Assembly (NCBI GenBank): GCA_050084515.1 | Contig: CM114271.1 | Coordinates: 12,834,001 to 12,898,000 of the forward strand | Length of the DNA stretch: 64,000 nt | From: Blasia pusilla | Lineage: Eukaryota | Reading direction: 5' to 3' | Shown here: piece after piece, positions 9,555-62,487 of the stretch | How the letters are laid out: every line of letters begins with the position of its first letter | Position numbering within the stretch: the first letter of the stretch is position 1 | Made by a program: the position numbers and the translations under genes | The notes under the pieces: generated by a model | What the model saw: the letters and a program-made list of their open reading frames with translations, nothing else | Database searches by the model: none | Told to the model about the DNA's origin: nothing

Positions 9555-9614
9555 TATGCCATGCTAATTAATATTATAGTTGGGTTAGATTTTGTAGAAT
9601 GTTACATAGATAAC

Positions 9615-10631: not shown

Positions 10632-10703
<72 letters not shown>

Positions 10704-19700: not shown

Positions 19701-21117
19701 GTCCACGTAGGTTTACCATAACCTTAATACTTAAGTTTCTTTACTCATACTCTTTCCTTCATATCGACGGTCGATAGCTAGTTCAGGCTTAGTAGATGAC
19801 ATGAGGTGATTCCGAGTTAACGCGGGGTTTAGGGTTTAGTATGTTCTTAAGCGTCTTCTCGCCAAAAAGCTTTGTTATGTTGTGAACTTATGCACCATGT
19901 GACACCTTTTAATACCAGTTATACTCAATCGTATTCGTTCCGAAAGGATATTAACATAATTCTTTTGAAAACAACCACTGAAGTTAACAAACATCGCAAT
20001 ACTCCTCAACAAGGATAATATTCCCTCAAACTCTAATGCTACACTTTTTTATGTGATAAAGATCAGCGTGAAGCTCTTCATAGATTCTACCTCTTGCCTA
20101 AACCCGTGTATATACCCTTGAAGCACAAGAGTATGGCCTGACCCGAAATCTTTATTAATCCATTACTATCTTGCTCAATTTTGTAATCAATCTTTGCCTA
20201 TGAAGAAGTACAAATGAGTTGGATTCCAATGTATTCACCACTCTTCCTCCAAATTTTCTCTTCACGAAGTCGAAAATGAAACTTGTCACAACAAAGATAT
20301 TCTTTCCAACAACTGGAACTTCTTAGCCCCACCAAAATAAAATATCTGAATCGATGCACATCCTTTTCTTAACCATAACACATTGTGCAGTCTCCTTGAT
20401 ATCACAGCGCAGGTCCTGTCACACAACAACGTCATTCATGCAACACATACACACATTGAAGAATGTATAGAATTTACTTAATTTAATACCCAAGGCACAC
20501 TCACACAAGGGATCCAAACTAAGTACTTGGATCCTTTCACAAGGAAAAGATCAATAATTGGTCTACTACCCTATCTTCACTACTCTTACTGCCATTGGTC
20601 CTAGTGTAATATCTCACTAATTTCCAAATTCACTATTTAAGTCATTTAATATTTATTTAGTTCCCCAAGAAGACGGAATTATCACTCAACTATTCAATTC
20701 AACCTACAACGAGAATTTTCTCGCTAGTTCTTCACATACAAAGATCTTCACTTATAACAAGTGTATTCTCACGTCAAGTCTTCCTAGTGGAGTTATTAAG
20801 TGGAGCTCAAAACCCTAGCTCAAAACACAATCTCCAATGAGGATGATATCTCTAACAAGCAAGAAAATCAAGTTCGTCAACAAGGAAAATGAGATCTATC
20901 CATAATTTTGTGACCTCTATGATGTCTTTCTACTATTGTAGCTATATATGTCTTCATAGGTTACTCTCAATCCAACAGATTTTAGTCACCAAATTCCTTT
21001 TGAAGAACACTCCTCTTGAGCCAACTACTCTCAAGTAGTCTACTCATGCATCTCCAATAAAATTAAGATCAATACCTCCAAATATATAGCAAAAAAATAT
21101 AGAAATTTTTTTGCCTC

Positions 21118-24100
21118 TGTCGTGCCCATACACATTGTTGCACAACATACATCGTTGTCACCGAACACACACACAAACACGCACGATTCCATGCTAACTC
21201 ATGGCATCCAAACAACGAGACAAGAAGTACCAAAATATCTCCAATTGCCCCCCAAGCTGGTGGTTAGGTCCCTCTAACTCCAAATAGCCATCTATCCCTA
21301 TCTACCATGATATACATCTCTCGGACGCTAAGAGCAAGAAGGCCGGGTGCTCATGTGGCCCATCGTTAGTCGCCTTCTTGTCATCTATGTCACAGACACA
21401 AGTCAGAATGTAGAACTACCTACTCTATGTACATCTAGGACACATCCATCGTCCCTGAGGAACCCTAGTGAGAGGTGGCGTTAAACATGCCATGTGCCAT
21501 CATCTCGAACATCCATCACAGAGTATCATAGTGGATGCACCATGGACAAAACCACACAACATACATCGCAATCATGCAGGAACTATAGCTAAGCTTGGAT
21601 CAATTATACCGTCAATGTTTGGAAGGTGACACGGCGCATAATTATGCACATGGTCCTTTCAAACCATACCATCGCGTCCCTCCAATAAGAGAACAGATGA
21701 TGGCAAAACCTCACGCACTCTTACGATGCTGCGCCCTTCAGTCGCATCCAACGTCGTGGATGCCATTTGCTGTAAGTAGACATAGTCTCTCTGATTCAAC
21801 CTCCAGATAGTAGGTCGATAACCACCTCCCGTATAGTTGCATACCTCAATGTATCGTGATGTTGCGCAATCGCCAAGTTCTCAAACGCCATGGGCATCAC
21901 TCTCTGAAACAATTCAGCCCTCTGAGAACATGCTGCATCCATACATCAGGATCATTACGATTCAACACCTCACGAACATCTCGACGAATGGCCGCATGAA
22001 TCTGGCTTTCGGCCATATAAAAGCAAGTACGGTGAGAAAGACGCTAAGGATGCTTGCATGTTGAATGTGTATCCCATCGCCAACCATGGCAACTGGAGGT
22101 CCCAATCTCCTAGGTGACCTCTCTGCAAGTCATATATGCGTAGTCCTCTCTTCACCGTCTGCACAACTCGCTCTGCTAGTCCATCCGCCTCGGGATGATC
22201 TCGCGAAGTAGTACGATGGTCAATCACTGCCTGATCACACAAGGCCTGAAACTCCCCGCAAAACTCTGTACCCTGTTCCTCACCTGGTGCGCCGTAATGA
22301 CTCGGCACTTGATTTAAGAAGATATACGCTACTCCCTCACTCGCTTTGTCAGGAAATGCAACCAACTCTATCCACTTCGAGAAGTACTCGACCATCACCA
22401 ACACATAACGACTATGGAGCTCCGTGAAAGGCAAAGGTCCTGCAAAATCCAAACTCCATCTATAACCTAAACCAATGATTAAAAGTGGATGCAACTGTGG
22501 AGTCAGAGCATTGAACGATGCTAGACTCGGTCACACACCACGCATCTGGCAACAAACTACTGAACGTCAGTCTGCATGCCTCGCCACCAATATTGAATCT
22601 GGAGCAAGCTGTATGTCAGCTTCACTCCAAAATGACCCAACTCCTCGTGGGCATGACGCACCAAATGCGCTCTCTGCAAAGGATGAGGCACTACACACAC
22701 TCTACCATCCTCCCACACTTGCAACACATGTGTTCCCTCCCATTGGAACCGTATGGCTCGCTCTAGGATCCGATCCTGCTCTTTAGCACATACTGTACTC
22801 GCAACGCTGCCAGTACGCAAGTACTCCAAGACCACTCCATCGTCGTGAATGTCTTGGCTACCTGTCGTCTCCTCACCGGCCTCTAGATCTAAGGAATCTC
22901 CATCAGACTTCACTATCAAAGTCTAAGCAATCTGGCTCCGCATAGCCAATAAGCCCAAATAGGCTGACCCATGCCATCTTGGCACCAACTCCTCATCACT
23001 CTCACCATGCCAACGAGCTCCAATCGCATCTCGCTTACTCGGGCATGGGTTACGGCTCAAACCATCTGCATCCTGGTTGAGCGTCCCAGGTCTATGTACC
23101 ACCTAGAAGTCATACTCGTGCAACAAAAGAGTTTACGTCCCAAGCTTCCTTGTAAGCTTGTCGAACTCCATCAACCACTTAAGTGGCTGATGATGAGTAA
23201 TGATGGTAAAGGGATTGCCTAATAGATAACATCTGAAATGTGCGAGAGCCCACACTGCACCCAAGCACTCATCCTCATACAAGCTATACTTTGCCACTGT
23301 AGCGTTGTTCGAGCGACTAGCATAAGCCACCATAAAATTTCTACCATCATCGTCATGTTGAGTGAGCACGGCTCCAAGCCCCAATATGCTCCAATCAGTA
23401 TGGAAATGGAAAGGACATCCCTTGATCGGTCCCCTCAGTATGGGCACGGACTTCAATCTATCCTTGAGCATTTGAAATGCTCGCTCCTGCTCATCCCTCC
23501 AGTGCCACTCCTGATCCACCTTGGTCAGCAAGGTCAGGGGCTTCGCAATCGACCTAAAACCCTTGACGTACTGTCGATAGAAGTTCGCCAATCCCATGAA
23601 TGCACAAACTTGATAAACATTTGTAGGGCGTGGAATGCGTGAAATAGCCTCTACTTTTGTCTGCTGTACATCAAGGCCTCTTGGGTTTATCGTATGACCC
23701 AAGTACTCAATTTGGTCATAGAAGAACTTGCACTTGCCTGGATGTAGCTTCAGCCCATATAACTGCAATCGTCAAAATACCTCCTCTAGATGTCGCTCAT
23801 GCTCCTCAATCATGGCACTAAGGACTACGATGTCATCAATATAACACCTAGCAAAATCCAGACCTGCCAAGATCCTATCCATGACCCTCTGAGATTAAGC
23901 CGGGGCGTTCTTTAACCCGAATGGTAAGAACCGCCACTAGTACAAAAATTCTTCTCGGGAGGATCGATGCCCCAAAATTCCGTCTTCTACTGTCCTCCAA
24001 TCTGATAGGCACTTGATGGTATCCGGCTTGCAAGTCCAATGAACTGAAGATCTTTGCATGCCCAATCGCATCAAAGATCTCCTCAGGGGTGGGCATGGCA

Positions 24101-27100
24101 TACCTATCGGACTTTGTCTATCGATTGATAGGTCGGTAATTTCCACACATCCGCCTATGCGTTGAGTTACCATGCACATCCTTCTTGGCGGGCATGAAAG
24201 TGGTATATGCATACTCTCCATGCGACATCTCCACTAGTCTTGCTCCAACCAAATCCTAGCTCCTGCTCTTAATCAAATCCCTCTCCATGTCACTATACCT
24301 ATAGGGTTGTTGGAAGATCAGCGTGTCATTCGACAACTCAATGCGGATCCTTGGACCCTTCAACGTACCCAAATCATGCATACTAAATGTGAAAAAACTG
24401 CTATAACTCCTAAGGAATTGGTGTATTCGGCGCCGATCTCCTCTTGTCAACTTAGGGCCTATATATGGCTCCCAAGTCTCCATCGTGACTACGGTAGGAC
24501 TCTACGGCACAGATGTCGGTGGTTGCTATGGTGCAACCCCATCTCGGACAAAAGAACTCTCATCGCCAGGTGTAGTACCCGGGACTAGGCTCAATGCTGT
24601 GGCTATCATCTCCTGGCGTGTCTCTCTCGATCACCCCTGGTGTGTCGATCTCCTGAGATCTTGCCCCAAGCCACTGCCTCAACCGCCTCGGTAGGCATAG
24701 GGCTCACCAATGCAACCTGGACTGAGAGTCAACTAATCTGCTATCTCGTCTAGCACTCAGCTGGCCTTGACATGGCCAACCAGCAATGACCAAGTCTATG
24801 GTCCCTACCCGCTCCAAGTCCTGCGCCCCCAGCAATGAAATACCCCGCGGTAGGGAACTCTAGTATCCTTGGACTGCGGACGCAGCCAACAAGTTGAGAA
24901 AATGGAGGCCTAATTGCGCCACATGGTGAAGTGAAGGGCGCCTTGCAACATCATCAATCTCCACATACAGATACTGTTGCACGCATACTCCTGCTTGCAA
25001 AACAGCAACTAACCTAGTGCTGATTCCTCCAAAGAGATCCAACACCCGAATACCCCCCTCAGGGATGCGCCACACAATGAGTGTGGTATCCAAGGGCGTC
25101 ATCATAGCACTCTCGGCTACCTCAGGTTCCTCTCACTTGCCACGCCCAGGTGCAAACGTCTCACTCCACACGATCTGCACATGCTCAGTGGCTAAGCGTC
25201 GAAGCTCCTCAGTCGAGCCCCAAAGCGGCACCTCTCCTCCACAAAATAATGCAGCTACCATGACACTCCTCTCCATAGACATGTCAAGAATGGGAATGTC
25301 CTATGCATGGACATGTCCCTCAATCAAATCACTAGGCCAAGTGATGGCCCTACAAAATGCTGCTAAGGTCTCCATCTCTCCTAGCCGTCGCTCGATCACT
25401 GCACCTGTGAATCGAATGTGTAATGAGCCAAGGCATCCATCACTAGAGTGCCATCTTGGTCTATAGGACGCTCACTCCTCCCAATAATCCATGGAAAACC
25501 CCATCGGGTACAACACTGCTCCCCTTACCAAGACGTGGTAAGATTGTGTATCAATCGGTATCGCCTTGGCTCGCACCACAGACTCATCTGTAGGATGTCC
25601 CCAGCGAATCCTCAACACGACCTCTTGTCGGGTGATATACTGGGTGTTACTTGCTCCACCCAAGGATGTCTATATCCGGAATGGACAACACTCCACATTG
25701 GCTCTCGTCAAGCCCTAATCCTCTAAATGACGCTTTCCCCAACATCAAGGGTTGCGCTCTTGAATCCAACAAGATGCGTTGCGGACTAAAAGCTCTACCT
25801 CCCAACTCACCAACTGGAAGACCTCTCGACTGGTTATCCAGCAATACAACACCAAGAGAAGCCATGGCACGCTCTATTGCGGGGCTAGCCGGCATCTCAG
25901 CCATCCTAGTAGTCGTAGCCTGCCATGAATCTGATGTGGACGACCTGAGCATCCGCTCCAAGGGCAAGTCCATCACCTCTGAATATAATGCAAGAAATCC
26001 AACTCCACGCTCACAAAGCGTAGCGGCCATCCAAAAAACTTTGGCGCGTGTACCTCCCAATGTCATAATATCGGAAGCAAAAAATAAAGGAGCACGGTAC
26101 ACAATAGTGGCCGCCCCCAACAACATGCTCGACACATGCTCCTCCTGAGCATGAGCAATAGGAGTCATCGCACTTGCTTCCCCCATTGCCCTTCATGCCT
26201 GCATACCAACAACATCACCCACTCTCTTGGAACTCCGATCACGACCCATTGATGGGGTCCTCATCGCCTCAGACAACGTGAAGGACTGAGGAAGCTTGGT
26301 CTGTTTCTTGGCTTCTCCTCGCTGTGGATCCAACTCTATGTCTAACAACTGCGACGGCCTCCATCTAGGCAAACCCGCACATCCAACTAGGATCCTCCAC
26401 ATCTCTGGCTGCTCCGTATGATGTTAATGTGATGGATCCGGCATGGGGTAACCTCAATGCCATAGCGGCAATCAGCTCATGTAGCTGCTGTATCAAATTC
26501 GCCATCCCAGCCTCACGCCCGACGTCTTCCTCGATGCGTCTAGGTGGTGGGCAACTCCAGCTCCTCGTCCCCCAACGCGACCACCTAGTGCACGACCTCT
26601 AGGCCCACCTGGACCGGCTTCTCGCTCTTGTGCCCTCTCTAACCCTCGCTCTTGACGTAACTCAGGGTGTAAATTGAAACACCTTGCGCGTGTGTGACGA
26701 TACATCTCACAATAGTCATATTGATAACCTCCTAATACAACACCATCTCCTTCTCCATGTTGAGGCATATGTCCATGATCCTCACGAGTGCAATCACGCT
26801 GATGATGGGCTCCACCACATGACCAACAACTAATTGTAGGCGGCTATTGCTGAGCCGCATATGAAGGCGCAGGTCTCTGTGGCATGGCCTCTTGATATCC
26901 TCTCTAAGCTCCTGGTGCCACAGTCAACCTATCGTGGAGTCCACGTTGCTGCATTGGTGGTGCAAAAAATCGTGATTGCTCTTGCCCAGAACCCATGATG
27001 GCTATGCTCTCCTCCGCCATGTTGCGCTCAATGTTCTCGGTGGTCCTAAAAAGATCTGTCAACGTAGGGGAGGTGTTCATAAGAAGCACCCCCTCCCGCA

Positions 27101-27325
27101 CCCATGTCCGTAGGGTCCGGTCTAGCATTGCGTACCATGATTGGATAGCTTGAGCCTCTGTCACCCTCTGAGTGACATTGATCAACCGGCGCAAGTGAGT
27201 GTAAGCCTCACGCAAACTCTCACCCGTGCGCCTCAAGAAGTCGTGGATGCTCCATAACTTCTCCGTCTGTACCCCTTGGTAGCTCTCCCTCTACTCAGCG
27301 AAGAACTCAACCATGGGGTTGAACC
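21118..27325 (-). mobile_element. 5'-truncated Gypsy copy of the DNMT/PHD family, ending in a single B repeat (21118-21245)
   Basis: gag knuckles, protease ILLDSRAQPLMLG, DNMT N-half, RT CYIDDI (~23830-23848), RH, IN WSLDFAG...DGLAERV, PHD ~21425-21570; collinear with 37864-44650. Confidence 0.93.
24715..25060 (-). pseudogene. C5 DNA methyltransferase N-half (motifs I-IV); C-half deleted
   Basis: IRVLDLFGGIS (motif I), YLYVEIDD (motif II), DLVIAGWPCQG (motif IV, ~24765-24795). Confidence 0.85.
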
Positions 27326-36559: not shown

Positions 36560-37219
36560 AGAAAACTTTGACATGTTCTTGAATCCTATATTTTATTGGA
36601 GGATTCCACTTCACAGTCAGATTCATCTGATTATGATATTCCCTCCCTCGAGGATGACGATATGCTCAACGTTAGTGACACCATTTCCTCCGATTTGAGC
36701 TTACATAAGGAAGATCATTCTGAGGTTGATGAAGATATGTGGCAACTATATGAAATGGTATAGGGAAGTAGATTTTTAGGGGATCGAAATGGGGTGCCTA
36801 AATCCAAAGACTTTATGGATAACATCTTCCTTGATTTACCCCCAAATTCATTGAGGCAAGTAACCCAAATGTTCACGAGACTTTCCAAAAAAATTGAGCC
36901 TAATAGAAGACCATTCTATCTTCTACTCGAATGCTTTGGATACCCAAATCTTTGTAAAATTCCAATTGCAATTGGATGTAGCCCTTGACAGGCTAGGGCA
37001 TAACAAAAACAATGCTTGCTTAGTGCACATTCTATTCTTATGGGGCACATCCCATGGTTCTGTTGTGAACTATAGTAGAAGAGTTGTCATTGCTTTGGTT
37101 GATAGACTATCACAAGAGCTACAATGGCCCAACTCACAAGAACGCCAAAGGATCTCATATGAATTTAGAAAACATGGATTCACATGATGTGTTGGAGTGA
37201 TTCATGGGACTTTATTCCC
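36560..37219 (+). pseudogene. PIF/Harbinger transposase, 5' part (interrupted by the Gypsy insertion; start approximate)
   Basis: QLQLDVALDRLGH...WGTSHGSVVNYSRRVVIAL...QWPNSQERQRIS..F..HGFT*CVGVIHGTLF = HARBI1/DDE_Tnp_4-like, up to the first catalytic motif. Confidence 0.8.
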
Positions 37220-37347
37220 TGTCGTGCACATACACATCGCTACACAACATACATCGCTGTCACCAAACACACACACAACCACGCACGATCCCATGTTAAC
37301 TCATGGCATCCAAACACAAAGGTGAGAAGTACCAAAATATCTCCAAT
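37220..37347 (-). repeat. Terminal repeat B2 (128 bp)
   Basis: Direct repeat of 37864-37991, ~12 substitutions by eye. Confidence 0.9.
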
Positions 37348-37861
37348 TAAAGTAAGATCCAATCTCTTTCTACACCATCTCACACCATAGCTCTCAAAGG
37401 TGTGCACTCTCTCTCATGTCAAACCAAACCCACTCTCCTAATGAGAGGCTTGGGTTACACTCACAAGGCAAGGGACCATAGCTCCGTCGCCTCATGCCAA
37501 GAGGTTCAACAAAGAGAGAATGAGCTTTCAAGCTCTCTCTCCTTGAGGTATACTCCTCCCCTCACCCAAGCTCTCTCCATGGTAACCTATTCTCCCAAGT
37601 CACCTCCTTGGCTCCTGATCTGATGCATGAGGTCAAGAGCCACTTACCAAAAATAGAAAGTTGATCATATACTCAAAATGGTACTTACCTAAAATAGTTA
37701 GTTCCTCAATATGGCTCCAAATGAGCCGAAACGAAGGGGAAACTTGCTCTCTAAGGTTTCCTGGGGGCTCACCAGGTCATCCTCAACCTATTGAGCCCGT
37801 CCTCCACTACTCACAAAGGCGCTCTACTAGATCTCACCGATCTATACTAAAAGACGTGACA
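37348..37861 (-). repeat. Repeat A2 (514 bp)
   Basis: Direct repeat of 46796-47309, ~26 substitutions and no indels by eye. Confidence 0.93.
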
Positions 37862-37863
37862 AC

Positions 37864-37991
37864 TGTGGTGCGCATACACATTGTTACACAACATACATCG
37901 CTGTCACTGGACACACACACAAACACGCACGATCCCATGCTAACTCATGGCATCCTAACACAGAGGCGAGAAGTACCAAAATATCTCCAAT
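37864..37991 (-). repeat. Repeat B1 (128 bp), preceded on the sense strand by a PPT-like AGGGGGGTG
   Basis: Direct repeat of 37220-37347; plus-strand CACCCCCCT at 37992-38000. Confidence 0.9.
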
Positions 37992-38177
37992 CACCCCCCT
38001 AGATGGTGGTTAGGTCCCTCTAACTCCAGATAGACATCTATCCCTACCTACCACGACATACATCTCTAAGACACTAAGAGCAAAATGGCCGGGTGCTCAT
38101 GTGGCCCCATCATTAGTCGCCTTCCTATCATCCATGTCACAGAAAAAGAGGGAACTGAAACCTACCTAGTATCTCCT

Positions 38178-38325
38178 CTATGTACATCTGGGACACATCC
38201 AGCGTCCCCGAGGAACCCTAGTGAGAGGTGACGTCTGAGATGCCATATGCCAAGCTCTCGAACAACCATCATATACTAGCATCGTGGCCGTACCATAGGC
38301 AAAACCACACAACATGCAACGTAAG
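38178..38325 (-). pseudogene. PHD finger at the integrase C-terminus
   Basis: CMLCGFAYGTATMLVYDGCSRAWHMASQTSPLTRVPRGRWMCPRC = C4HC3 pattern; the two mutated Cys are intact in the copy at ~21425-21570. Confidence 0.88.
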
Positions 38326-39460
38326 CCTGCAAGAACTACAACTAAGCTCGGATCTACTGTACCATCAATGTTAGGAAGGTGATATGGCGCAAAATTATGC
38401 ACATGGTCCTTCCATACCATACCATCGCATCCCTCCAGCAAGAGAAAACCGGATGGCAAAACGTCACGCACTCTCAGGATTATGCACCTGCAGTCACATC
38501 CAACGTCGTCGGCGCCGTCTGCTGCAAGTAGACATAATCTCCTTGATGAAACCTCCGGATAGTTGATCGATAATCACCACCCCGAATAGTCGCATACCTC
38601 AACGTATCCCGATGCTGCGCAATCGCCAAGTTCTCGAACGCCATGGGCATCACTCTCCAAAACAACTCAGCCCTCTGAGAACATGCTCGCATCCATACAT
38701 CTGGGTCATCAAGGTCCAACACCTCACCAGCATCTCGAAAAATAGCCACAGGTAAATCTAGCTCTCCGCCATAAAGTGGCAAGTACGGTGAAAAAGACGT
38801 TAAGGATGCCTGCTGCTGAATCTGTATCCCATCGCCAACTAGGGCAACTGGAGGTCCCAATCTCCTAGGTGACCTCTCTGCAAGCCATACTTGCGTAAAA
38901 CCCTCTTCACCGTCTGCATAACTCTCTCCGCTAATCCATCCGCCTCACGATGGTCTATCGAAGTCGTGCGATGGTCAATCAGTGCCTGATCACACAAGGC
39001 CTGGAACTCACCGCAAAACTTGGTACCCTGGTCTGTCAACACCTCAGCTGGTGCGCCATAATGACTCAGTACTCTGTCAAGGAAGGCATAGGCTACTTCC
39101 TCACTCGCTTTGTCAGGCAATGCAACCGACTCGATCCACTTCGAGAAGTGCTCGACCATCACCAAGACATAACGACTATGACGCTCCGTCAAAGGCAAAG
39201 GTCCTGCAAAATCCAAACTCCATCTATACCCTAAGCCCATGATCGGTAATGGATGCAACTGTGGAGTCGGAGCATTGAACGATGCTCGGACCCGATCACA
39301 CCACATGCACCTGGCAACAAACTGCTGAACGTCAGTCTACATACCTCGCCACCAATACTGAATCTAGAGCAAGTTGTACGTCCGCTTCACCCCAAAGTGA
39401 CCCAACTCCTTGTGGGCATGCTGCACTAGTCCTGCTCTCTGCAAAGGATGCGGCACTACG
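38326..39460 (-). pseudogene. DDE integrase (HHCC + rve core)
   Basis: HKELGHFG zinc domain; WSLDFAG, VLTDQG, DGLAERV catalytic triad. Confidence 0.93.
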
Positions 39461-39879
39461 CGTACTCTGCCATCCTCCAAAACCCTCAAAACATGTGTCC
39501 CCTCCCAACGGAACCGTCTGGCCTGCTGTAGGATCCGATCCCGCTCTCTAGCACCCACGGTGCTCGTAATGCTGCCAATCCGAAGGCACTCCAAGAATGC
39601 TCCATCATCATGAATATCTCGGCCATCTGTCGTCTCCTCACTGGCCTCGGGATCGAAGGACTCTCCACTAGACCTCGCCATCAAAGTCTTCACACTCTGG
39701 CTCTCCATAGCCAACATGCCTAAATAGGTTGACGCGTGCCATCCTGGCACTGATTCCTCATCACTCTCTCCATGCCATCGAGCTCCAATCGTATCTCGCT
39801 GACTCGGGCATGGGTTACAACTCAACCCATCTGCATCCTGGTTGAGCGTCCGAGCTCTATGTACCACCTGTAAATCATA

Positions 39880-41030
39880 CTCCTGCAACATCACAACCCA
39901 TCTCGCAAGCTTCCCTATAAGCTTGTCGGACTCCATCAACCACTTCAGTGGTTGATGATCAGTGATGATGGTAAAGGGATTGCCAAAAAAGTAACATGTG
40001 AAATGCGCGACAGCCCACACCGTAGCCAAGCACTCACCCTCATACAAGCTAAACTTTGCCTCTACAGCATTATTTGAGCGGCTAACATAAGCCACCACAA
40101 ACTATCTACCCTCATCATCATGCTGGGTGAACACCGCTCGAAGCCCCAACATGCTCCAATCTGTGTGCAACTGGAAAGGATGCCCCCTAATTGGTCTCCT
40201 CAAGATGGGCGCGGATGTCAACCTGTCCTTGAGCAACTGAAATGCTCGCTCTTGCTCATCCCCCCATTGCCACTCATGATCCACCTTGATCAGCAAGGTC
40301 AACGGCTTTGCAATCAAAGTGAATCCCTTGACGTACCGCGGATAGAAGTTTGCCAATCCCATGAATGCGCGAACACGGCTCACATCTATATGGCGTGGAT
40401 TGCCTGAGATAGCCTCTACCTTTGTCTGCTGAACACCAAGGCCCCTTGGGTATATTGTATGACCCAAGTACTCAATCTGGTCGTAGAAGAATTTGCACTT
40501 GCCTGGATGTAGCTTCAGCCCATGTAATTGCAATCGTCAAAACACCTCCTCTAGATGTCGCTCATGCTCCTCAACCGTGGCGCTAAAGACTAAGATGTCA
40601 TCAATTTAACACTTAGAAAAATCCAAATCAGCTAAGATCCTATCCATGACCCTCTGAAACTCATCCGGGGCATTCTTTAACCCAAATGGTAAGAACCGCC
40701 ACTGGTACAAAAAATCCTTCCCGTGAGGATTGATGCCCCAAAATGCCCTCTTCTGCCTGTCCTCTAATCTGATAGGCAACTGGTGATATCCAACTCGCAA
40801 ATCCAATGAATTGAAGACCTTTGCGTGACCAATTGTATCAAAGATCTCCTCACGGATGGGCATGGCATACCTATCGAACTTCTTGTGCCGATTGATAGGT
40901 CGATAATCCCCACACATCCGCCTATCCTTCTAGTTGCCATGCACATCCTTCTTGGCGGGCATGACAGTGGCAGATGCATACTCCCTATGCAACATCTCCA
41001 CTAATCCTGCTCCAACCAAGTCTTGGCTCC
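39880..41030 (-). pseudogene. Gypsy reverse transcriptase + RNaseH
   Basis: MCGDYRPIN, LDLRVGYHQL, LPFGLKNAP, C*IDDI, KCKFF..IEYLGH, FQLHTDWS, YEGECLA, ITDHQPLKWL. Confidence 0.95.
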
Positions 41031-41589
41031 TACTCTAAATAAGAGCCCTCTCCATATCACTATACCTGTAGGGTCGTCGGAAGATCGGCGTATCACTCAA
41101 CAACTCAATGCAGATCCCCGGTCCCTTCAGCGTACCCAAATTCTCCATGCTAAACGCAAAGCAGCTCCTATAACTCCTGAGGAACTGATGTATTCGGCGC
41201 CGCTCTCCTCCTGTCAACTTAGGGCCCATATCTGGCTCCCAAGTCTCCATTGTGACTACGGTAGGACTCTCCGACGCGGATATTGGTGGTTGCTATGGTG
41301 CAACCCCCTCTCGAACAACAACACTCGACCGCTCTCCTACAGCCAACTGCAAACTCTGATCTCCTCCACATGCATTTCCCGGAACCACGCTCGATGTTAC
41401 GACTATCATCTCCTGGCGTACCTGCAAAACATCCTAAGAAGTCCAAGGGTGTCTCTCTCGATCTCCCCTGGTGTGTCAATCTCCTCGGGTCTCGCCCCCG
41501 CCATTTCCTCCACCATCTTGGTAGGCATGGGGCTCACCAACGCAACTACTCTGGTCTGTCGCGATCTCAACCGACGCTGCTCAGCCACT

Positions 41590-42540
41590 CCCAAGCTAAA
41601 GATCCATGTCAAGTAGTTCAAGTCCATCGCCTGACCCAAGATATGGTGTCGTGATGCCTCTGATATTGACAGGAGTGGCGTCACTCTTAGGGGAAATCCC
41701 ATCGCCCGCTCTCTCTCATCGGCGTTGGGCTCCACCAACCTCTGAACCTGGTCATCCCAAACCAAGCCAAGACCGGCCTCCTTGTATGCATAGGAAGCGG
41801 GAAAACTCACAAACGTGGGAAAGGCTGCCCGCGGCTTGCCTACCTTGTTGACCACAGTCAACGGTGGTCGATCATCGTGCCTCACTGCCTGTGATCATGA
41901 GCGACAACCTAGATCCACAATGGAATCCACTAACAAATGGGAGGGGCGCTCCACTCTCGCATATGCCCTCCGTAACACCGCATGGGGCACCAAATTGGTC
42001 CATTATAGACGCGGGCAATGGGCTCTAGAACCTACACTCGCCGCATCCAAGAACACTGCTGGGCCGATCCAAGCATGCACCTAATAAGCACTCGTCACCA
42101 CCCGTGACCTGGAGTCTCCTAAGATGGGCACATTCTCCACAATGTAGGCTAGAGAATGAGATTGGTGCTCTCGCAACTGCCTCAACCTCTCCCAAAACAA
42201 CCTGGACCGAGTATCAGCCAACCCGCTGCCTTGTCGAGCGCTCAATTGGCCCTGACATGGCCAACCAGAAATGACCAAATCAATGATCCCTACCCGCTGT
42301 AAGTCCTGCGCCCCCAGCAACGAAATATCCCTCGGTAGGGAATTGTGGTATCCTTGTACCGAGGACGTAGATAATAAGTCGGGAAAATGTAGGCATAACT
42401 GCGTCATATGTCGTAGTGAGATGCGCCTTGCAACATTGTCACTCTCCACATACAAGTACTGTTGTACTCGCACTGCTGCCTGCAAAACAACAGCTAACCC
42501 GGTGCTAATCCCTCCAAAGAGATCTAACAGTCGAATATCC
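41590..42540 (-). pseudogene. C5 cytosine DNA methyltransferase domain (DNMT3-like, unpermuted motifs I-X) inside pol
   Basis: I LLDLFGGI (42507-42530); II YVESD; IV DLVISGWPCQG (GWPCQ 42252-42266); VI YIVENV (~42130); VIII PAVFLDAASVGSRAHCPRL*WTNL; IX ERERAMGFP; X SRHHILGQAMD. Confidence 0.92.
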
Positions 42541-42929
42541 TCCTCCGAGGTACACCACACAATGGGGGTGGTATCCAAGGATTTAATCGTAGCACTCCTT
42601 GCTACCTCGGGTTCCTCAGACCCGTCATGCTCCGGTGCAAACGCCTTGCTCCACGCGGTTTGCACGTGCTCATCGGCCAACCATCGAAGCTCCTCAGTCG
42701 AGCCCCACAGCGGCATCTCTCCTCCACAGAATGAAGCGGCTACCATAACACTCCTTTCCATAGAAATATCAAGAACGGGAGTATCCTCTGCATGGACATG
42801 TCCCTCAATCAAATCACTAGGCCAAGTGATGGCACTGCTAAGTGCTGCTAAGGTCGCCATCTCTCCTAGCCGTTGCTCGATCACTGCACATGTAAATCGA
42901 ACGGGTAATGAGCTAAGGCACCCATCACC

Positions 42930-43298
42930 TCACTGCCATCTTGGTCTGTAAGACGATGACTCTTCCCAGTAATCCAGGGAAACCCCCATCGAGTATAACA
43001 CTGCTCCACCAACCAAGGCGTCGTAGGACTCTGCATCAGTCACTATCGTCTTGGCTCGCACCACGGACTCATCTGTAGGATGTCCCGGGCAAATCCTCAC
43101 CACAACCTCCTGTTGGGTGATATACTGTGTGGTACTCGCTCCACCCAAGGATGTCTGTATCTGCAATGGACAACGCTCCACATCGGCTCTCATCAAGCCC
43201 AATCCTCTGAATGACGCTTTCCCCAACATCAGGGGTTGCACTCCTGAATCCAACAAGACGCGCTGCGGACTAAAAGCTCTACCTCTGGGACTCACCAA
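42930..43298 (-). pseudogene. Retropepsin-type aspartic protease
   Basis: VLLDSGVQPLMLG and YDALVGG motifs. Confidence 0.85.
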
Positions 43299-43873
43299 CT
43301 AGAAGACCTCTCCTCTGTTATCGAGCAACACATCACCAGGAGAAGCCATGGCACGCTCTATCGCGGGTCTAGCGGGCATCTCCGCCATCCTAGCAGCCGC
43401 AGCCTACCATGAATCTGACGTGGACGGCCCGAGCATCCGCTCCAAGGGCAGGTCCATCACCTCCATTGCAATCACCTCTGAATGTGATGCAGGAACTCCA
43501 ACTCCACGCTCACATAGCGTAGCGGCCAGCCAAAAAGCCTCAACGGGCGTACCCCCAACGTCATAACATCGAAAGCAGAAAATAAAGGAGCGCGGTATAC
43601 AATGGTGGCTGCCTCCAACAACGTGCTCGACACATGCCCCTCCTAAGCATCAACAATAGGAGTCGTGGCACTCGCTTCTCCCATCGCCCTCCGTGCCTGC
43701 ACACCAGCAACATCACCAACTCTCCAAGAACTCTGATCAGGACCCATCGATGGGGTCCTCATCGCCTCGGACAACATGAAAGATTGAGGAAGCCTAGTCT
43801 GTTTCCTGGCTTCCCTTCGTTGTGGATCCAACTCTGCAACTGCTCCACGCGTCACAACTGCGGCTGCCTCCAT

Positions 43874-45111
43874 CTAGGAAACCCCGCTCATCCAACCTGG
43901 ATCCTCCATCTCTCTGGCTGCTCCATATGATGTCGATGCGATGGATCCGGCATCGGATAATCTCAATGCCATAGCGGCAATCTGCTCCTGTAGCTGATGT
44001 ATCTGAGGAGCCATCCTAGCCTCATGCCCGGCATCTCCCTCGACGCATGTAGGTGGTAGGACACTACCTCCCCCATGGGCAGCTCCACCACCCTGTCGGG
44101 CAACTTCAGCTCCTCGTCCCCCAACAGGACCACCTGGTGCACAATCTCTAGCCCACCTAGACCGGCTACTCACTTTGGTGCCCTCTCTGGCCCTCGGTCC
44201 GGACGTAACTCAGGATGTAAACTAAAACTCGTGGCGCGTGTATGACCATACCTCTGATAATAGTCACACTGATAACCTCTTGGTGCAGCACTATTTCCTC
44301 CTCCATGCTGAGGCACATGTCCATGACTCTCATGAGTGCAATGGAACGCTGATAATGGGCTCCACGACATGACCAACAAGTTATAATAGGCAGCTGCTGC
44401 TGAGCCGCATATGAAGGCGTGTGCATATCACTCAGGGTCCGGTCTAGCATCACATACCATGACTGGATAGCCTGAGCCTCTGTCACCCCCTGAGTGACGC
44501 TGAATTTCCGGCGCAAGCGAGTGTAAGCCTCATGCAAACTCTTACCCGGGCGCCTCCGGAAGTCGTGGATGCTCCGCAACTTCTCCGTCCGTACCCCTTG
44601 GTAGCTCGCCCTCAACTCAACAAAGAACTCAACCACACGGTTTAACCTGGGATGAACCCGACTAGACGGTGCAACTGCTCCCGTGCGAGTGATCCCTCCT
44701 AAAACGTCACTAGTGGAAGAGGAAGTAGCCTCTTGTGACTCCTCCTCCTCATGTGGGAATGGCTCCGTCCATGACATATAATGTGGGTCACAGTTGAGCC
44801 TCCACGCCTCGATTTCACGTGCATATCTCTGAGAGAACTCATGGTAATCGTCCCTCTAAATGCTGGAACATACCATTCCAAGGTGTAAACGGGTTGAACT
44901 CTCTAGAGTTCCTTGCTCGTTGGAAGTCGCACCAACTCCTAAACTCTGCTATGAAATCGTGCAACTCAATCGTACCTACTGCACCTGAAAACCTACGCGG
45001 TCCTCTACCCCAATCGTCCATCTCGTACGCCCAAGTGGTAGGACCACTCACAATATGTGGCGATGTGCTCACAAACTCCTCTACACGCTCCCCCTTGTTT
45101 GAAGACGACAC
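43874..45111 (-). pseudogene. Gag with two zinc-knuckle remnants
   Basis: RRFSGAVGTIELHDFI, FRRRPGKSLHEAYTRL, CWSCRGAH and CDYYQRYGH knuckles. Confidence 0.8.
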
Positions 45112-46795
45112 AGAAGGAGATCGAGGTGGTCTCTCACGTGGAGATCCTTGAAACCTTGCACCAATCCGGGTAAACCGTCCAGAGCTACTCTCTCGTCCAC
45201 TACCTCGCCTCTCAAAATCCTAAAAGGACGCCGTGATGGCCCTCGTGCCCCTCTCACACGATCACTCTCAACCTTGCAAGTAATCCCTCAATCACTCATC
45301 CCAAACATGCGTCACTTGATCTACACTCTCCCCGAGACATGTAACGTGCGGCAACAAGCGGCGTGGGGCGGAAAATCGACAAGGCTTTCATCTCATCGAC
45401 AACCTACCCTCAACTCCGGACATCCCACACAAGTCTATGTCCCCTAAACCACATACATAGATGATGCTCTCAGCATCCACATACCCAATATCCCCAAATA
45501 AACTACCCAAATCCCATAATCCCTCACACGTGCAGGGTAAAGGACCAGAATGGGTAACCTGAACACATGTCGATGTCGCTCCTCAGCAACTGCAAATCTC
45601 GACATCAACTCGGTCATGGAGACAACTCCTCCAATCAGCAAGTCATACTCCTCCCGTACTGACGCTGCTTAAAACTCCTTGATGGACAGTGTGGTTCCAG
45701 CGGAACGATGCGGCGTTGTAGGCGGTACGGAACGGCTACGAACGACACAACCCTCGATGGTGGGATGCGGCACTCGGAGGCATACCCTCCTCAATCAACA
45801 ATAAACCCACACTCTACTCCACAATGATGGTGCGATTCCGCGATCGAGACGGTGCAAAGGCGCCACGAAGCGCACGGGCGCAAAGAATCGGGCGCGCTGC
45901 GTTTTACGGGCGTCAGAGCACGGTACTCGATCGTCGTTGAGCGGCTACCAATCACAACATAGCAGCATGAAATCAAAACTCAACCACCATAAGCGGAGGT
46001 CATCTGCCATCACTGGATGATGACGAAACTTTGATGACGGTGGCGGCCAAAACAAAGTATGTGGTGGCGACGCAAGTGAGAGAATCAAAAAATGTCGTGG
46101 AAGACCCTACACTCCGTAATGGTGGCAATGGCAACCAAAGGGTGGACAACGGCCGAATGTGGCTCTGAGCAACGTTGGGCAACGGCAATAGCCGACGGTG
46201 GCCGGTGGACCGTTGACGGTGAGTATGAAGGTGACGGCTGCCGCCGGCATGGCAGCTGGTTTAGGGTTTAACCCTAAAAATCGCCTAGCAATGGAAATTT
46301 TGCAAGATTGACCATAACTTTTTACTTGCAACTCCAAATTAAGCACCGTTTGTTGCACAACGTGCATAGCTTCATGATCTAAAATAGTGTCAAAAAATAT
46401 TTGGAATTGAACATTCCAAATAACGGAGACTGTCGTAAAGCCCAATATCTCTTTCTCCTACACAAAATTTGGCAGCGCTTCCGTGCTGATTTCTCCCAAC
46501 CAAAACGTAAAACCTGTAAAAATACAAATCAGCAAGCTACATGGTGCTTCTGAGAGCATCAGAATGGGGCAACCCACTTCCATGATCAATCCCTATCAGA
46601 AATTGGGCAGCACTTCCGCACGCCACTCTTCCACACGAAAAATCGGAAAATGCAAAGAACAATCAAAGCAACCCTTGCTCTGGTGAGCACTCTTCATGAG
46701 CTGCTGAACGGGGAACACGATCCCCAACCTGAAAAAATAGCAAGTGACCAGCGAGCTCCCCCATGAAGTTCTCTCACTCTCTCGTTCTCTCTTTG

Positions 46796-47309
46796 TAAAG
46801 TAAGATCCAATCTCTCTCTACACCATCTCACACCATAGCTCTCAAAGGTGTGCACTCTCTCTCATGTCAAACCAAACCCACTCTCTTAATGAGAGGCTTG
46901 GGTTACACTCACAGGGCAAGGGACCATAGCTCCGCCGCCTCATGCCAAGAGGTTCAACAAAGAGAGAATGAGCTCTCAAGCTCTCTCTCCTTGAGGGATA
47001 CCCCTCCCCTCACCCAAGCTCTCTCCATGGTAACCTATTCTCCCAAGTCACCTCCTTGGCTCTTGACCTGATGTAGGAGGTCAAGGGCCACTTACCAAAA
47101 ATAGAAAGTTGATCATATACTCAAAATGGTAGTTACCTAAAATAGCGAGTTCCTCAATATGGCTCCAAATGAGCCGAAACGAAGGGGAAACGTGCTCTCT
47201 CACGTTTCCCGGGGCCTCAACAGGTCATCCTCAACCTACTTAGCCTGTCCTCCACTACTCACAAAGGCGCTCTACTAGATCTCACCGATGTATCCTAAAA
47301 GACGTGACA
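46796..47309 (-). repeat. 5' terminal repeat A1 (514 bp)
   Basis: Sense strand starts TGTCACGTC; direct repeat of 37348-37861. Confidence 0.93.
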
Positions 47310-47313
47310 TCCC

Positions 47314-60100: not shown

Positions 60101-62487
60101 TGTCGTGCGCATACACATCGCTACACAACATATATCGCTGTCACCAAACACACACATAAACACGCATGATCCCATGCTAACTCATGGCATCCAAACAATG
60201 AGACGAGGAGTACCAAAATATCTCCAATCAAATAAGGTCAAATCTTTCTCACAGCACCATAGCTCTCACATGTGTGCACTCTCATATGTCTCTCTCAATG
60301 TCAAACCAAACCCACTCTCCTAATGAGAGGCTTGGATTACACTCACAAGGCAAAGGACCAAAGCTCCGCCGCCTCGTGCCAAGAGGATCAACCAAGAGAG
60401 AATGAGCGTTCTACTAGATCTCGCAGATCTATCCTAAAAGATGTGACAGTTGTCGTACACATACACATCGCTATACAACATACGTCGTTGTTACCAAACA
60501 CACACATAAACATGCACAATCCCGTACTCATGTGGCCCCATCGTTAGTCGCCTTCTTGTCATCCATATCACAAGACATAAGTCAAAATCTAAAACTACCT
60601 ACTCTATGTACATTTGGGATACATCCATCATTTTTGAGGACCCTAGTGAGAGGTGGCGTCAAACATGCCATATGCCACCATCTCAAACACCCGTCATAGA
60701 CTAGCATAGTGGTTGCACCATGGGCGGAACCACACAACATACATTGCAAACCTGTAGGAACTATTGGTAGGCTCAGATCAACTATCACGTCAATGTTAGG
60801 AAGGTGACATGACGCACAGTCTTTTTCCTAAATGTTGAAATAATAATTTAAATTATAGAATAAAAAACTAAATTGATAATGAAAAAAAGGTAACTTTGAT
60901 TTTGGGATTCTATTTTTTAATTTAATTTCATCTTTAAACAAAAATTAATTATTATTTAAGAAACGTCTTTTCTATTCAACTCTCAACTTAGTATAGGGAA
61001 AATTAAACAATAATTGAGTATATGAAGGCTTCATAAGTGAAGTTCACGGGGAGCTTCTAAGCCAGGGCTAACGCCCTTAATGAAGCTCTCTCACTCACTC
61101 ATTCTCTCTTTGTAAAATAAGATCAAATCTTTCTCACAACCCTATAGTTCTCACATGTGTGCACTCTCACATGTGTCTCTCAATATCAAACCAAACCCAC
61201 TCTCCTAATGAGAGGCTTGGGTTACACACACAAGGCAAGCAAGACCATAGCTCCGCTCCTTCATGCCAAGAGGTTCAACAAAGAGAGAATGAGCTCTCGA
61301 GCTCTCTCTCCATGGTAACCTATGCTCCCAAGTCAACGTATACAACAAATTATGTGGTGGCAGCTCAAGTCAGAGAATCAACAATCGTCGTGGAAGACTG
61401 TCCACTCCGTAATGGAAGCAATGGCAACCAATGGCGGAGAACGGCCGAACGCGGCTCTTAGCGGCGGTGGCCAAAAATTGACGACAGACAGCGGACGGCG
61501 ATGGTGGACCATTGATGGTGATGGTTGACCATTGATGGTGACTATGATGGTGACGACCGTCGCCGGCACGGCGGCTAGTTTAGGGTTTTAGCAATTTTAC
61601 CGTAAAAATTGCCTAGCAATGGCATTTTTGCAAGATCAACCATAACTTTTTGCTCACATCCTAAAATTGTGCACTATTTCTTCCATAACGTGAAAAACTT
61701 TGAGATCTACGAAAAGGGCTAATTTTGGTTTAATTCAACTTTCCCACAAAAACTGACGGGAACTATCATGCAGCCCTTCAAATCTGCACTCCTAAGACAA
61801 TCGGCAGCGCTTCCGCGCTAATTTCTTCCACAAAAAACTTCAGACCTATAAAATCACAAACCAACAAGCTACTTGGTGCTTCCAAGAGCACTCAAATGGG
61901 GAAATCCGCCCCCAAAATTCATTTATACAGAAATTTGGGCAGCGCTTCCGCACGCCACTCTTCCACACAAAAAATTAGCAATGGAAAACGGTAAAACAAG
62001 TAGCGCTTGCTCCGGTCAGCACTCCCATGAGCCGCTGAATGGGGAACACGGTCCCCAACCCGCACCAAAAATGAGTAACCAGCGAGCTCCTCCATTGAAA
62101 CTCTCTCCCGCTCTCATTCTCTATTTGTAAAATAAGGTCAAATCTCTCTCACAACACCATAGCTCTCATATGTGTGCACTCTCACATGTCTCTCTCAATG
62201 TCAAACCAAACCCACTCTCCTAATGAGAAGCTTGGGTTACGCTCCCAAGGCAAGGGACCATAGCTCTTCTGCCTCGTGCCAAGAGGTTCAATAAAGAGAG
62301 AATGAGCTCTCAAGCTTTCTCTCTTGGAGGTATACCCCCTTCCCTCTCCCAAGCTCTTTCCTCGATGACCTGCTCTCTCAGGTTACCCGTGGCCTCAACA
62401 AATGATCCTCAACCTCCTAAGGCTGCCCTCCAATATCTCCAAATGCGCTCTACTAGATCTCGCCAATCTATCCTAAAAGACATGACA
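60101..62487 (-). mobile_element. Internally deleted derivative of the split-repeat Gypsy, 4-bp TSD TTGT
   Basis: B2 60101-60228, A2 60229-60448 (internally deleted), spacer, B1 from 60451, PHD remnant 60582-60788, extra partial A ~61113-61330, 5'UTR, A1 62128-62487; TTGT at 60097-60100 and 62488-62491. Confidence 0.9.

Follow-up and report, generated by a model that had tools for sequence, protein, structure and literature searches.

Split direct repeats in a decayed Gypsy-DNMT3 retrotransposon of Blasia pusilla and a possible route through end-joined cDNA

Ty3/Gypsy retrotransposons (Metaviridae) are recognised by two equal long terminal repeats (LTRs) with TG..CA ends, of which the 5′ LTR lies at the primer-binding site (PBS) and the 3′ LTR at the polypurine tract (PPT), and by a target-site duplication of 4–6 bp. 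Here we describe an element with a different repeat plan at positions 37220–47309 (sense strand: minus) of a 64,000-nucleotide stretch of the Blasia pusilla genome (GenBank assembly GCA_050084515.1, contig CM114271.1, positions 12,834,001–12,898,000), hereafter called the window. Its plan is that of the tyrosine-recombinase retroelements PAT-like, Toc, Kangaroo and Ngaro, which carry split direct repeats in the order A1-internal-B1-A2-B2 (PMC4157794, PMC8969392), and the initial annotation of the window was in agreement with these sources when it called the layout typical of such elements. That annotation also held that no Gypsy element of this kind had been described, which is not the case: the legend of Fig. 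4c in de Mendoza et al. (2018, PMC5890265) gives KnitGypsy-Dnmt3 of the alga Klebsormidium nitens a DIRS-like repeat arrangement together with Gypsy-like domains. The same authors treat the acquisition of Dnmt3 as specific to the K. nitens lineage, and a ‘Gypsy-DNMT3’ of streptophytes is named in a 2026 preprint (10.64898/2026.05.21.726589), in the available text of which the repeats are not discussed.

KnitGypsy-Dnmt3 and the Blasia element share a Dnmt3-like C5 methyltransferase within a Pol of Gypsy type and the order A-coding-B-A-B. They differ in that KnitGypsy-Dnmt3 has an algal host, whereas the Blasia element lies in a land plant and has its best protein matches in liverworts (Calypogeia, Riccia and Marchantia). 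Moreover, the main text of PMC5890265 gives neither target duplications nor a PBS/PPT register or a mechanism. In the open full-text literature, with supplements, Repbase and subscription journals outside the scope, that paper was the only account of a Gypsy element with split direct repeats; within the same scope we found no account of duplications, PBS/PPT register, an internal att palindrome or a single-B form in Gypsy-DNMT3, of its layout in bryophytes or zygnematophytes, or of its mechanism. New here are a purine or G-run tract at B1 and a candidate Tf1-like self-priming site after A1. Judged from its sequence, the element is a decayed, new and probably liverwort representative of the Gypsy-DNMT3 kind known from streptophytes; its C5 DNMT domain, the hallmark of this kind, had escaped the initial annotation.

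With Ty3/Gypsy the element shares the protease-reverse transcriptase (RT)-RNase H-integrase order, a D,D35E rve integrase, a Ty3-like RT/RNase H and a short target duplication. What it lacks are paired LTRs coinciding with PBS and PPT, since its candidate PBS lies at the end of A and its PPT at the start of B. With PAT, Toc, Kangaroo and Ngaro it shares the identical split-repeat order, i.e. two B|A joins of which one is opened. However, those elements are described with a tyrosine recombinase and without target duplications, while the Blasia element combines TG..CA ends and 4-bp duplications with a D,D35E integrase; those that have a methyltransferase carry one of the Dam-like type, in contrast to the C5 DNMT found here.

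Repeat layout and coding content of the element

Repeat finding and self-blastn were used to delimit the A and B repeats. On the sense (minus) strand the order is A1 (514 nt), internal region, B1 (128 nt), 2 nt, A2 (514 nt) and B2 (128 nt). A1 and A2 are 94.9% identical over 514 nt without gaps, and B1 and B2 90.6% identical over 128 nt. The features of the repeats are, from 5′ to 3′:

47310..47313, minus strand: 5′ target-site duplication GGGA (4 bp; junction read-out)
46796..47309, minus strand: A1, 514 nt, starting with TGTCACG, the integrase-type left end (94.9% identical to A2)
37864..37991, minus strand: B1, 128 nt, ending in ..CCACA, an integrase-type right-end sequence (repeat finder, self-blastn)
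37862..37863, minus strand: 2-nt spacer GT, separating the CA of B1 from the TG of A2 (junction read-out)
37348..37861, minus strand: A2, 514 nt (repeat finder, self-blastn)
37220..37347, minus strand: B2, 128 nt, ending in ..CGACA, the right end of the element (junction read-out, self-blastn)
37216..37219, minus strand: 3′ target-site duplication GGGA (junction read-out)

Read along the sense strand, the flank ...GGGA is followed by the A1 start TGTCACG at 47309; A1 ends in ...CTTTA, followed by CAAAGAGAGAAC... of the internal region; the internal region ends in ...CTAGGGGGGTG, followed by ATTGGAG... of B1; B1 and A2 meet as ...CCACA-GT-TGTCACG; A2 and B2 are joined flush (...CTTTA, then ATTGGAG); and B2 ends in ...CGACA, followed by the flank GGGA. 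The terminal dinucleotides of the element are thus TG..CA. The repeat lengths, the 2-nt spacer, the TG..CA ends and the 4-bp duplication given by the initial annotation were all reproduced by the repeat finder, self-blastn and junction read-out.

The element is a decayed, frameshifted member of the Ty3/Gypsy type in which every reading frame is broken. Its domain order is gag, protease, C5 DNMT, RT, RNase H, D,D35E integrase and PHD finger. We ran Pfam on 10 sense open reading frames (ORFs) and then on 10 further ORFs from both strands, 20 in total and each of at least 90 aa. The sense ORFs gave, in order on the minus strand, DNA_methylase, RVT_1, RT_RNaseH, a weak Integrase_H2C2, rve and PHD; the 10 additional ORFs gave no Pfam match. 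The coding features are:

44166..44855, minus strand: gag-region ORF fragment, 229 aa, no Pfam match; relatives have a gag with a CCHC knuckle there (ORF and relatives)
42930..43298, minus strand: protease-like ORF fragment with an LLDSG motif, no Pfam match; relatives match Asp_protease_2 at this position (ORF and relatives)
41406..42929, minus strand: C5 cytosine DNA methyltransferase region in two ORF fragments (Pfam, PF00145, E 1.9e-7)
40102..40929, minus strand: RT fragments (Pfam, RVT_1, E 5.4e-11) and the start of an RNase H-like domain
39364..40101, minus strand: RNase H (Pfam, RT_RNaseH, E 2.7e-22) and the start of the integrase zinc-binding domain (weak H2C2)
38839..39336, minus strand: integrase catalytic core with D42, D102 and E137 present (Pfam, rve, E 1.6e-15; alignment)
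38178..38573, minus strand: C-terminal PHD finger (Pfam, E 1.3e-4, 22.3 bits, slightly below the Pfam cut-off of 24 bits)

The DNMT motifs FGG, PCQ and ENV are legible in the ORF at 42081–42929, upstream of the RT (PF00145, E 1.9e-7). D42, D102 and E137 of the integrase are invariant or nearly so across 10 aligned integrases, with 35 residues from D102 to E137. The integrase C-terminus carries a PHD finger and not a chromodomain, and PF00628 (PHD) is precomputed on many relatives of the integrase core. These relatives include proteins of Calypogeia fissa (86% identity) and Riccia sorocarpa (85%) as well as volvocine Pol proteins, among them one of Tetrabaena. The relatives of the DNMT ORF are gag-protease-DNMT-RT-RNase H polyproteins of Marchantia polymorpha (at most 52% identity), Calypogeia, Sphagnum and Closterium, and several single relative proteins combine rve, RVT_1, RNase H, PF00145 and PHD. 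From K. nitens, the single match was an integrase-plus-PHD protein with 57% identity to the integrase core, and no K. nitens protein was among the 26 DNMT matches, for which lengths of 495–2000 aa were searched. The Ty3 affinity of the RT was read from a Marchantia relative (P0012), the window’s own broken RT having been assessed by Pfam only: the best match of its RT-RNase H is the Ty3 RT 4ol8 (E 4e-48), with Ty3 Gag-Pol 7q5b at E 1.4e-47 and retroviral RTs behind, and its DNMT part is closest to DNMT3A chains (E 2e-6).

A tyrosine recombinase (Phage_integrase) was found neither by Pfam in the 20 ORFs from both strands nor in the precomputed Pfam lists of 146 related proteins. The earlier view that the element has a DDE integrase and no tyrosine recombinase is thereby borne out.

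The layout across the lineage

Three further copies lie in the window; the element at 37220–47309 is copy 1.

60101..62487, minus strand: copy 4, internally deleted, in the order A1..B1-AC-A2-B2, with its own duplication ACAA at 62488–62491 and 60097–60100 (self-blastn, junctions)
4025..7909, plus strand: copy 3, shortened, with pol region, purine tract, B1, GC spacer and the first 228 nt of A2 (self-blastn, junctions)
21117..27325, minus strand: copy 2, 5′-truncated, ending in internal-PPT-B-CA and then flank, without A2-B2, i.e. in the single-B form (junctions)

The layout and separate target duplication that the initial annotation had seen at 60101–62487 were recovered together with internal deletions, and self-blastn placed an additional partial A of this copy at 61113–61335. 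Likewise, the B1-A2 join reported for 4025–7910 holds for 4025–7909: copy 3 reads B...TA-GC-TGTCAC, which is of the B1-nn-A2 type (nn being the 2-nt spacer), and its B1 is interrupted by a 220-nt unrelated insert.

The tallies of copies come from the window and from 80 metagenome loci. Metagenome contigs were scanned with the DNMT alignment, by which 126 relatives were confirmed and the 80 loci retained; the 38 loci of at least 8 kb were put through self-blastn, followed by junction read-outs and motif scans, and loci with common flanks were counted once. A scan of viral contigs with the integrase alignment gave 84 pattern matches, none of which was confirmed.

Eight distinct complete elements were obtained. 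Six have the order A-int-B-nn-A-B (window copies 1 and 4, L045 (=L046), L059 (=L061, L062, L080), L074 and L078 (=L075, L077, L079)) and two the order A-int-B (L014 (=L013), with duplication TGTT, and L024, with ATTA). All eight are flanked by perfect 4-bp duplications (GGGA, ACAA, AAGG, CCTT, CCTA, AAAG, TGTT and ATTA), for each of which the chance expectation of a match is 1/256, and all have TGTCAYG...CRYGACA termini, with the final CA being TA in L074. Equal paired LTRs of the ordinary AB...AB kind occur in none of them, and A2-B2 has no duplication of its own. Furthermore, none of 16 distinct 5′ ends has B upstream of A1; the A1 start was not located in two further rows, L034 and L080. 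The B1-nn-A2-B2 arrangement forms 12 distinct 3′ ends, here given with their spacers: copy 1 (GT), copy 4 (AC), L045 (GC), L019 (GC), L023 (AT), L064 (AC), L059 (GT), L060 (=L063; GC), L074 (TC), L078 (=L079; TC/TT), L009 at 16936 (GT) and L068 (GC). The end of B and the start of A are always exactly 2 nt apart (CA and TG, or TA in two decayed copies). Another six distinct 3′ ends have a single B, in the order A-internal-PPT-B|flank without A2-B2 (window copy 2, L014, L024, L009 at 14890, L038 and L057 (=L058, L067)), and L040 and L041 stop short of the point that decides between the two forms. A first self-blast reading of L014 and L024 as elements without any terminal repeats was dropped; both are A-internal-B with duplications. 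The longest open frame across the 80 loci is 957 aa, and L045, L059, L074 and L078 all have broken frames.

The layout is therefore a trait of the lineage, chance being excluded because the identical order recurs in independent contigs together with perfect duplications in eight of eight elements. The 12 distinct B1-nn-A2-B2 ends and the absence of B upstream of A1 at all 16 distinct 5′ ends uphold the earlier view of a family trait as opposed to a nested solo LTR. Rearranged copies do exist nearby (the extra partial A in copy 4 and an array at 9548–10846). However, we find it scarcely credible that ordinary Gypsy copies had their 3′ ends changed by a nested solo LTR, unequal crossover or misassembly: order, 2-nt spacing and outer duplications recur in six distinct complete insertions from two data sources and three subfamilies, A2-B2 is not flanked by a duplication of its own, and the lack of any canonical element among the eight complete ones already contradicts this explanation.

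Similarly, it is very improbable that we are dealing with a true tyrosine-recombinase (PAT/Ngaro-like) element, or with one mobilised in trans by such an element and carrying its Gypsy-type integrase incidentally. Such an origin would account for the A1-int-B1-A2-B2 order, the defining one of PAT, Toc, Kangaroo and Ngaro (PMC4157794, PMC8969392), but not for the missing Phage_integrase in 20 ORFs and 146 Pfam lists, nor for the eight perfect 4-bp duplications with TG..CA inverted ends, DIRS elements being without duplications as far as PMC8969392 describes them. Moreover, the catalytic triad of the integrase is conserved and the RT-RNase H is closest to Ty3.

A further explanation takes the single-B form as primary: most insertions would be A-int-B, derived from linear cDNA or from 1-LTR circles cut at both junctions, and A-int-B-nn-A-B would be a rarer side product or recombinant. 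The six distinct single-B 3′ ends and the complete, duplication-flanked L014 and L024 fit this account. Nevertheless we regard it as quite improbable. A-int-B lacks a 3′ R (the repeated region of the transcript), so that its RNA would fail at first-strand transfer and this form could not sustain the lineage. Distinct ends of the B1-nn-A2-B2 type outnumber single-B ends two to one (12 versus 6), the divergences of A1/A2 and B1/B2 are similar, and therefore both pairs date from insertion, and a B1 x B2 deletion would account equally well for the single-B copies.

Some structures stand apart from these tallies. The array at 9548–10846 (plus strand) is a short decayed relative with several integrase-type units in tandem: a 32-nt A remnant, B, AA, 62 nt of A, B, AG, a 28-nt A remnant, a PBS-like CAAAGAGAGAATGAG, about 320 nt of internal region, B, AG, an A of about 460 nt, and B|flank. 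Its last A holds a long (GA)n expansion at 10632–10700. The array contains a B-nn-A-PBS arrangement that is absent from all true 5′ ends; as a copy with B upstream of A it was set aside, its outer flanks being without a duplication and unequal crossover fitting equally. It may have arisen by unequal crossover or as a multi-LTR product. In L074, an 85-nt repeat (1339–1423 and 12202–12286, 85% identical) lies just outside both ends beyond the 4-bp duplication, and the element may have inserted into a pre-existing 85-nt repeat. In L018, an ordinary 786-nt direct repeat pair (1398–2183 and 8444–9228, 94%) starts 300 nt past the DNMT match and probably belongs to a different LTR element nested in a DNMT-Gypsy copy.

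Candidate primer sites, repeat registers and transcripts

Three short features would place reverse transcription relative to the repeats of copy 1:

46958..46968, minus strand: 11-nt segment TTCTCTCTTTG, A positions 342–352, complementary to the bases after A1 (6 of 2000 shuffles reach 11 nt)
46785..46795, minus strand: candidate self-priming PBS CAAAGAGAGAA, directly 3′ of A1 (complementarity search)
37992..38000, minus strand: PPT AGGGGGGTG, adjoining the first base of B1 (junction read-out)

A purine run precedes B1 in window copies 1–3 (AGGGGGGTG, TGGGGGGCA and AAGGGAAGTA, the last, of copy 3, not being a pure G-run), and a G-run (GGGGGGCGAG, GGGGGGGG) precedes it in each locus with an intact B1 start. 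At the other side of the internal region, 10–16 bases after A1 are complementary to a segment about 120–180 nt upstream within A, the spacing being 122–177 nt in the loci and 173–181 nt in the window copies. Perfect complements occur at five of eight A1 ends (11 nt in copy 1, 10 nt in copy 4, 15 nt in the extra A of copy 4, 16 nt in L045 and 13 nt in L059), and each was matched by no more than 8 of 2000 shuffles. With mismatches and G.U pairs allowed, the duplex is found in all 21 locus rows with a 5′ end, representing about 12 distinct insertions, with 10–16 Watson-Crick pairs plus 0–2 G.U. It occurs in three unrelated sequence versions (CAAAGAGAGAA/TTCTCTCTTTG, CTCAAAGAAC../..GTTCTTTGAG and TCTAGAAAAA/TTTTTCTAGA), and one insertion (L075/77/78/79) retains it by means of two G.U pairs. 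The minimum free energy (MFE) fold joins the 5′ segment to the PBS in three of four sequences. No TGG adjoins A1, and a tRNA search found no tRNA gene in the 64-kb window.

The Tf1 primer is 11 nt long. The anatomy found after A1 resembles self-priming of the Tf1/Sushi type, and the segment at 46958–46968 would be the RNA 5′ end, serving both as transcript start and as self-primer. For the plant Tcn1 elements, which are related to Tf1/Sushi, self-priming has likewise been predicted (Neumann et al. 2019, PMC6317226). The Blasia element is like these elements in having no recognisable tRNA-type PBS and, after the 5′ repeat, bases complementary to a core of about 10–11 nt some 120–180 nt upstream. 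However, Tf1, Sushi and Tcn1 elements are chromoviruses with ordinary paired LTRs, whereas the Blasia element has a PHD finger in place of the chromodomain and integrase ends that lie apart from PBS and PPT.

In the register of reverse transcription the LTR would accordingly be B-nn-A. Its U3 (unique 3′ region) would consist of B, nn and the first two thirds of A, and its R-U5 (U5, unique 5′ region) of the last 120–180 nt of A; A1 would thus hold the 3′ part of U3 plus R-U5, and B1 the first part of U3. With a PPT at B1 and a self-priming-type PBS at A1, reverse transcription should give a linear (B-nn-A)-PBS-int-PPT-(B-nn-A). The outer ends expected for such cDNA, the start of B and the end of A, are ATTGGAG.. 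/ ..CTTTA in copy 1 and ATACATG.. / ..TTTAAT or TTGTGG.. / ..TTTTCA in the other versions, and are neither TG..CA nor inverted repeats. The ends that actually lie beside the target duplications are the start of A and the end of B, which abut within each B-nn-A LTR as the near-palindrome CRYGACA-nn-TGTCAYG. Since the LTR defined by reverse transcription thus differs from the integrase ends, the integrated copies are circular permutations of the expected cDNA.

The A2|B2 join corresponds in this register to the PBS-defined end of A joined to the PPT-defined start of B, i.e. the end of U5 to the start of U3. It is flush in copy 1 and in L045-type copies, with one base ambiguous. Within the ATACATG subfamily, L074 and L060 have a flush join, while 1 nt is missing in L059 and 2 nt in L078, L009 and L068, so that 1–2 nt are lost in four of six distinct insertions. 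In the same subfamily, all four A1 ends and all five readable B1 starts are intact (the B1 start of L068 is not preserved). Loss at the join with intact A1 ends and B1 starts is as expected if the A2|B2 join is made anew in every cycle.

A separate observation concerns the end of B. Its last ~40 nt (37864–37903; ..AGCGATGTATGTTGT..ATGTGTAT.CGCAC.ACA) are well conserved relative to L045:10310-10350, although the DNMT proteins of the window and L045 subfamilies are only about 50% identical. A conserved stretch of ~40 nt exceeds the usual requirement of an integrase end.

Two stranded raw RNA runs carrying the same species label were mapped, with reads counted from 85% likeness. The element collected 6110 and 6425 reads, overwhelmingly on one strand and consistent with its sense strand. 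Only 2–3 reads were at least 99% like the 37220–47309 copy, and the source of the RNA is therefore other copies of the family. The B|A join was spanned by 17 reads and the A|B join by 5. The expressed subfamily departs from copy 1 at two points, exactly where the G-run ends at the boundary of PPT and B1 (37994) and five nucleotides inside A2 (37857). It still matches copy 1 at 37903–37857, a stretch that runs from the final ~40 nt of B1 across the spacer to the fifth nucleotide of A2. The att junction thus seems better conserved between subfamilies than the rest of the repeats. In two DNA runs from different studies the summed depth was very high and A exceeded the internal region about 5–10 times, pointing to an abundance of solo or short derivatives. 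Moreover, a junction between 40050 and 41125, at which 1074 nt are skipped and 3 extraneous letters stand, is present in RNA reads only (7 in one run, 17 in the other) and in no DNA contig. On the sense strand it is not bounded by GT..AG, and it may represent an expressed deletion derivative.

Joined cDNA ends as a proposed intermediate

The best explanation of these two registers, which we hold with moderate confidence, is that end-joined cDNA, for example of the 2-LTR-circle kind, is cut by the DDE integrase at an internal B-nn-A junction. The RNA start segment in A would prime minus-strand synthesis as in Tf1/Sushi elements, and reverse transcription would yield the linear (B-nn-A)-PBS-internal-PPT-(B-nn-A). 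Its ends (U5|U3) would then join, in a 2-LTR circle or an equivalent head-to-tail join, and the integrase would cut 3′ of both CAs at one internal junction, dropping that nn. Insertion of the permuted molecule with a 4-bp stagger would give A-internal-B-nn-A-B. Such a product would keep the promoter-bearing A1 and a complete U3-R in B1-nn-A2, so that the cycle could repeat; B2 would be required only as the right att end. The A-int-B copies could come from a 1-LTR circle, from the cutting of both junctions or from later B1 x B2 deletion. The initial annotation had read the structure as a (B-A)-internal-(B-A) circle opened at one B|A join. The reading of an opening at such a join is strengthened by the positions of PPT and PBS, while a circle as such is something we infer.

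DDE enzymes acting on abutted ends are known from other systems. Insertion sequences of the IS3/IS30 type transpose via circles with abutted ends, their DDE enzyme using as substrate a junction of right and left ends a few bases apart; they are DNA transposons without reverse transcription, and the likeness to the Blasia element is mechanistic only. The integrase of foamy virus (PFV) cleaves the palindromic LTR-LTR junction of 2-LTR circles (PMC1180852), and there is an HIV-1 precedent for integrase cutting at abutted ends (PMC1905944). As in our proposal, a DDE integrase acts there on CA-(n)-TG and regenerates a processed linear molecule. However, the retroviral palindrome arises from ligated cDNA ends by a route that is accessory or disputed, whereas the Blasia palindrome is encoded in each LTR, the ligated A|B join would stay uncut and the element would depend on this route.

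An alternative without ligation or circle is that reverse transcription alone builds a linear A-int-B-nn-A-B by extra template switches, the plus strand for example jumping end-to-end from the end of A onto the start of B, and that the integrase trims the 3′ tails to CA. The same PBS/PPT register is compatible with it, a flush A2|B2 join or one within 2 nt is what template jumping can produce, and DIRS-1 cDNA was found to be mostly linear and single-stranded, not circular (PMC7192593). We nevertheless consider this alternative unlikely. At the left end B-nn (115–190 nt) would have to be removed from the minus-strand 3′ end, compared with the usual 2-nt processing, and no ordinary strong-stop scheme that copies B after A2 was derived. 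As we could not derive the observed order from ordinary strong-stop transfers at any primer placement, some joining step seems required.

Several points weigh against the end-joining explanation or parts of it. The joining step and the cutting at the internal junction are themselves deduced. For the priming site, three of the eight A1 ends (L074, L078 and L080) are without a significant perfect complement and form the duplex only with a mismatch or G.U; the copy 1 PBS is of low complexity, and the MFE fold of copy 1 pairs the 5′ segment with a GA-rich U5 stretch instead of the PBS. No cluster of RNA read starts is listed in A, and on comparison a tRNA-type primer may still be conceivable. At A2|B2 the missing nucleotides fall in an AT-AT context, and slippage after insertion would leave the same picture. 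Furthermore, the spacer nn varies (GT, AC, GC, TC, TT and AT), and in a tree of 11 3′ regions the internal branches are too short to resolve its inheritance. Finally, all examined copies are decayed and the RNA reads are mostly 85–95% like the 37220–47309 copy, so that present-day activity of the layout would be a supposition.

More tentatively, and as a possibility to which we give somewhat less credence, the whole lineage may consist of DDE-integrase retrotransposons with an obligatory end-joined cDNA substrate that is cut at the att palindrome inside the LTR. In this wider reading it would comprise liverworts, mosses, zygnematophytes, probably Klebsormidium and perhaps the PHD-bearing chlorophyte Gypsy elements. 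Among the latter, Gypsy-7a_cRei of Chlamydomonas reinhardtii, which is active and carries a PHD finger and integrase, has a left LTR that is without the final 8 bp of its right counterpart (Craig et al. 2022, PMC9940879). It resembles the Blasia element in the PHD finger beside the integrase, DNMT not being among its listed domains, and, compared by description only, may have the same layout with a very short B. If the wider reading is true, split direct repeats would be a general signature of cDNA ends that are joined and then reopened elsewhere, which either a tyrosine recombinase (DIRS, PAT, Ngaro) or a DDE integrase could generate. 2-LTR circles, usually deemed dead ends, would be the productive intermediate, and 1-LTR circles would lead to dead-end A-internal-B copies.

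Other features of the window include an intact 251-aa ORF with DPBB_1 and Expansin_C, i.e. an expansin gene, at 13023–13778 (plus strand) in a GC-richer island amid transposon remains, and a Ty1/Copia reverse transcriptase fragment at 177–893 (minus strand; RVT_2, E 3e-30). The region 52000–54000 is very AT-rich (24% G+C) and holds direct repeats of about 122 nt (52304–52426/53883–54005 and 52518–52639/52905–53026).

Overall, the value of the element lies in its anatomy at the level of mechanism, the layout being already in print and the 37220–47309 copy dead. LTR finders that expect equal paired LTRs would mis-call or miss such elements, of which there are many in the source genome. In the textbook scheme, LTR retrotransposons and retroviruses insert a linear cDNA whose primer-set ends are the substrates of the integrase. 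In the Blasia lineage, primer-defined ends and integrase ends are uncoupled by 113–190 bp, and the primer-defined ends would have to join before the integrase could find its own. This idea is testable because relatives occur in the genetic model Marchantia polymorpha. The productivity of retroviral 2-LTR circles has been argued for decades. If our explanation is true, these elements would offer a natural case of a DDE integrase whose productive intermediate is end-joined cDNA, and it would explain the odd repeat layout that a Gypsy lineage has in common with tyrosine-recombinase elements.

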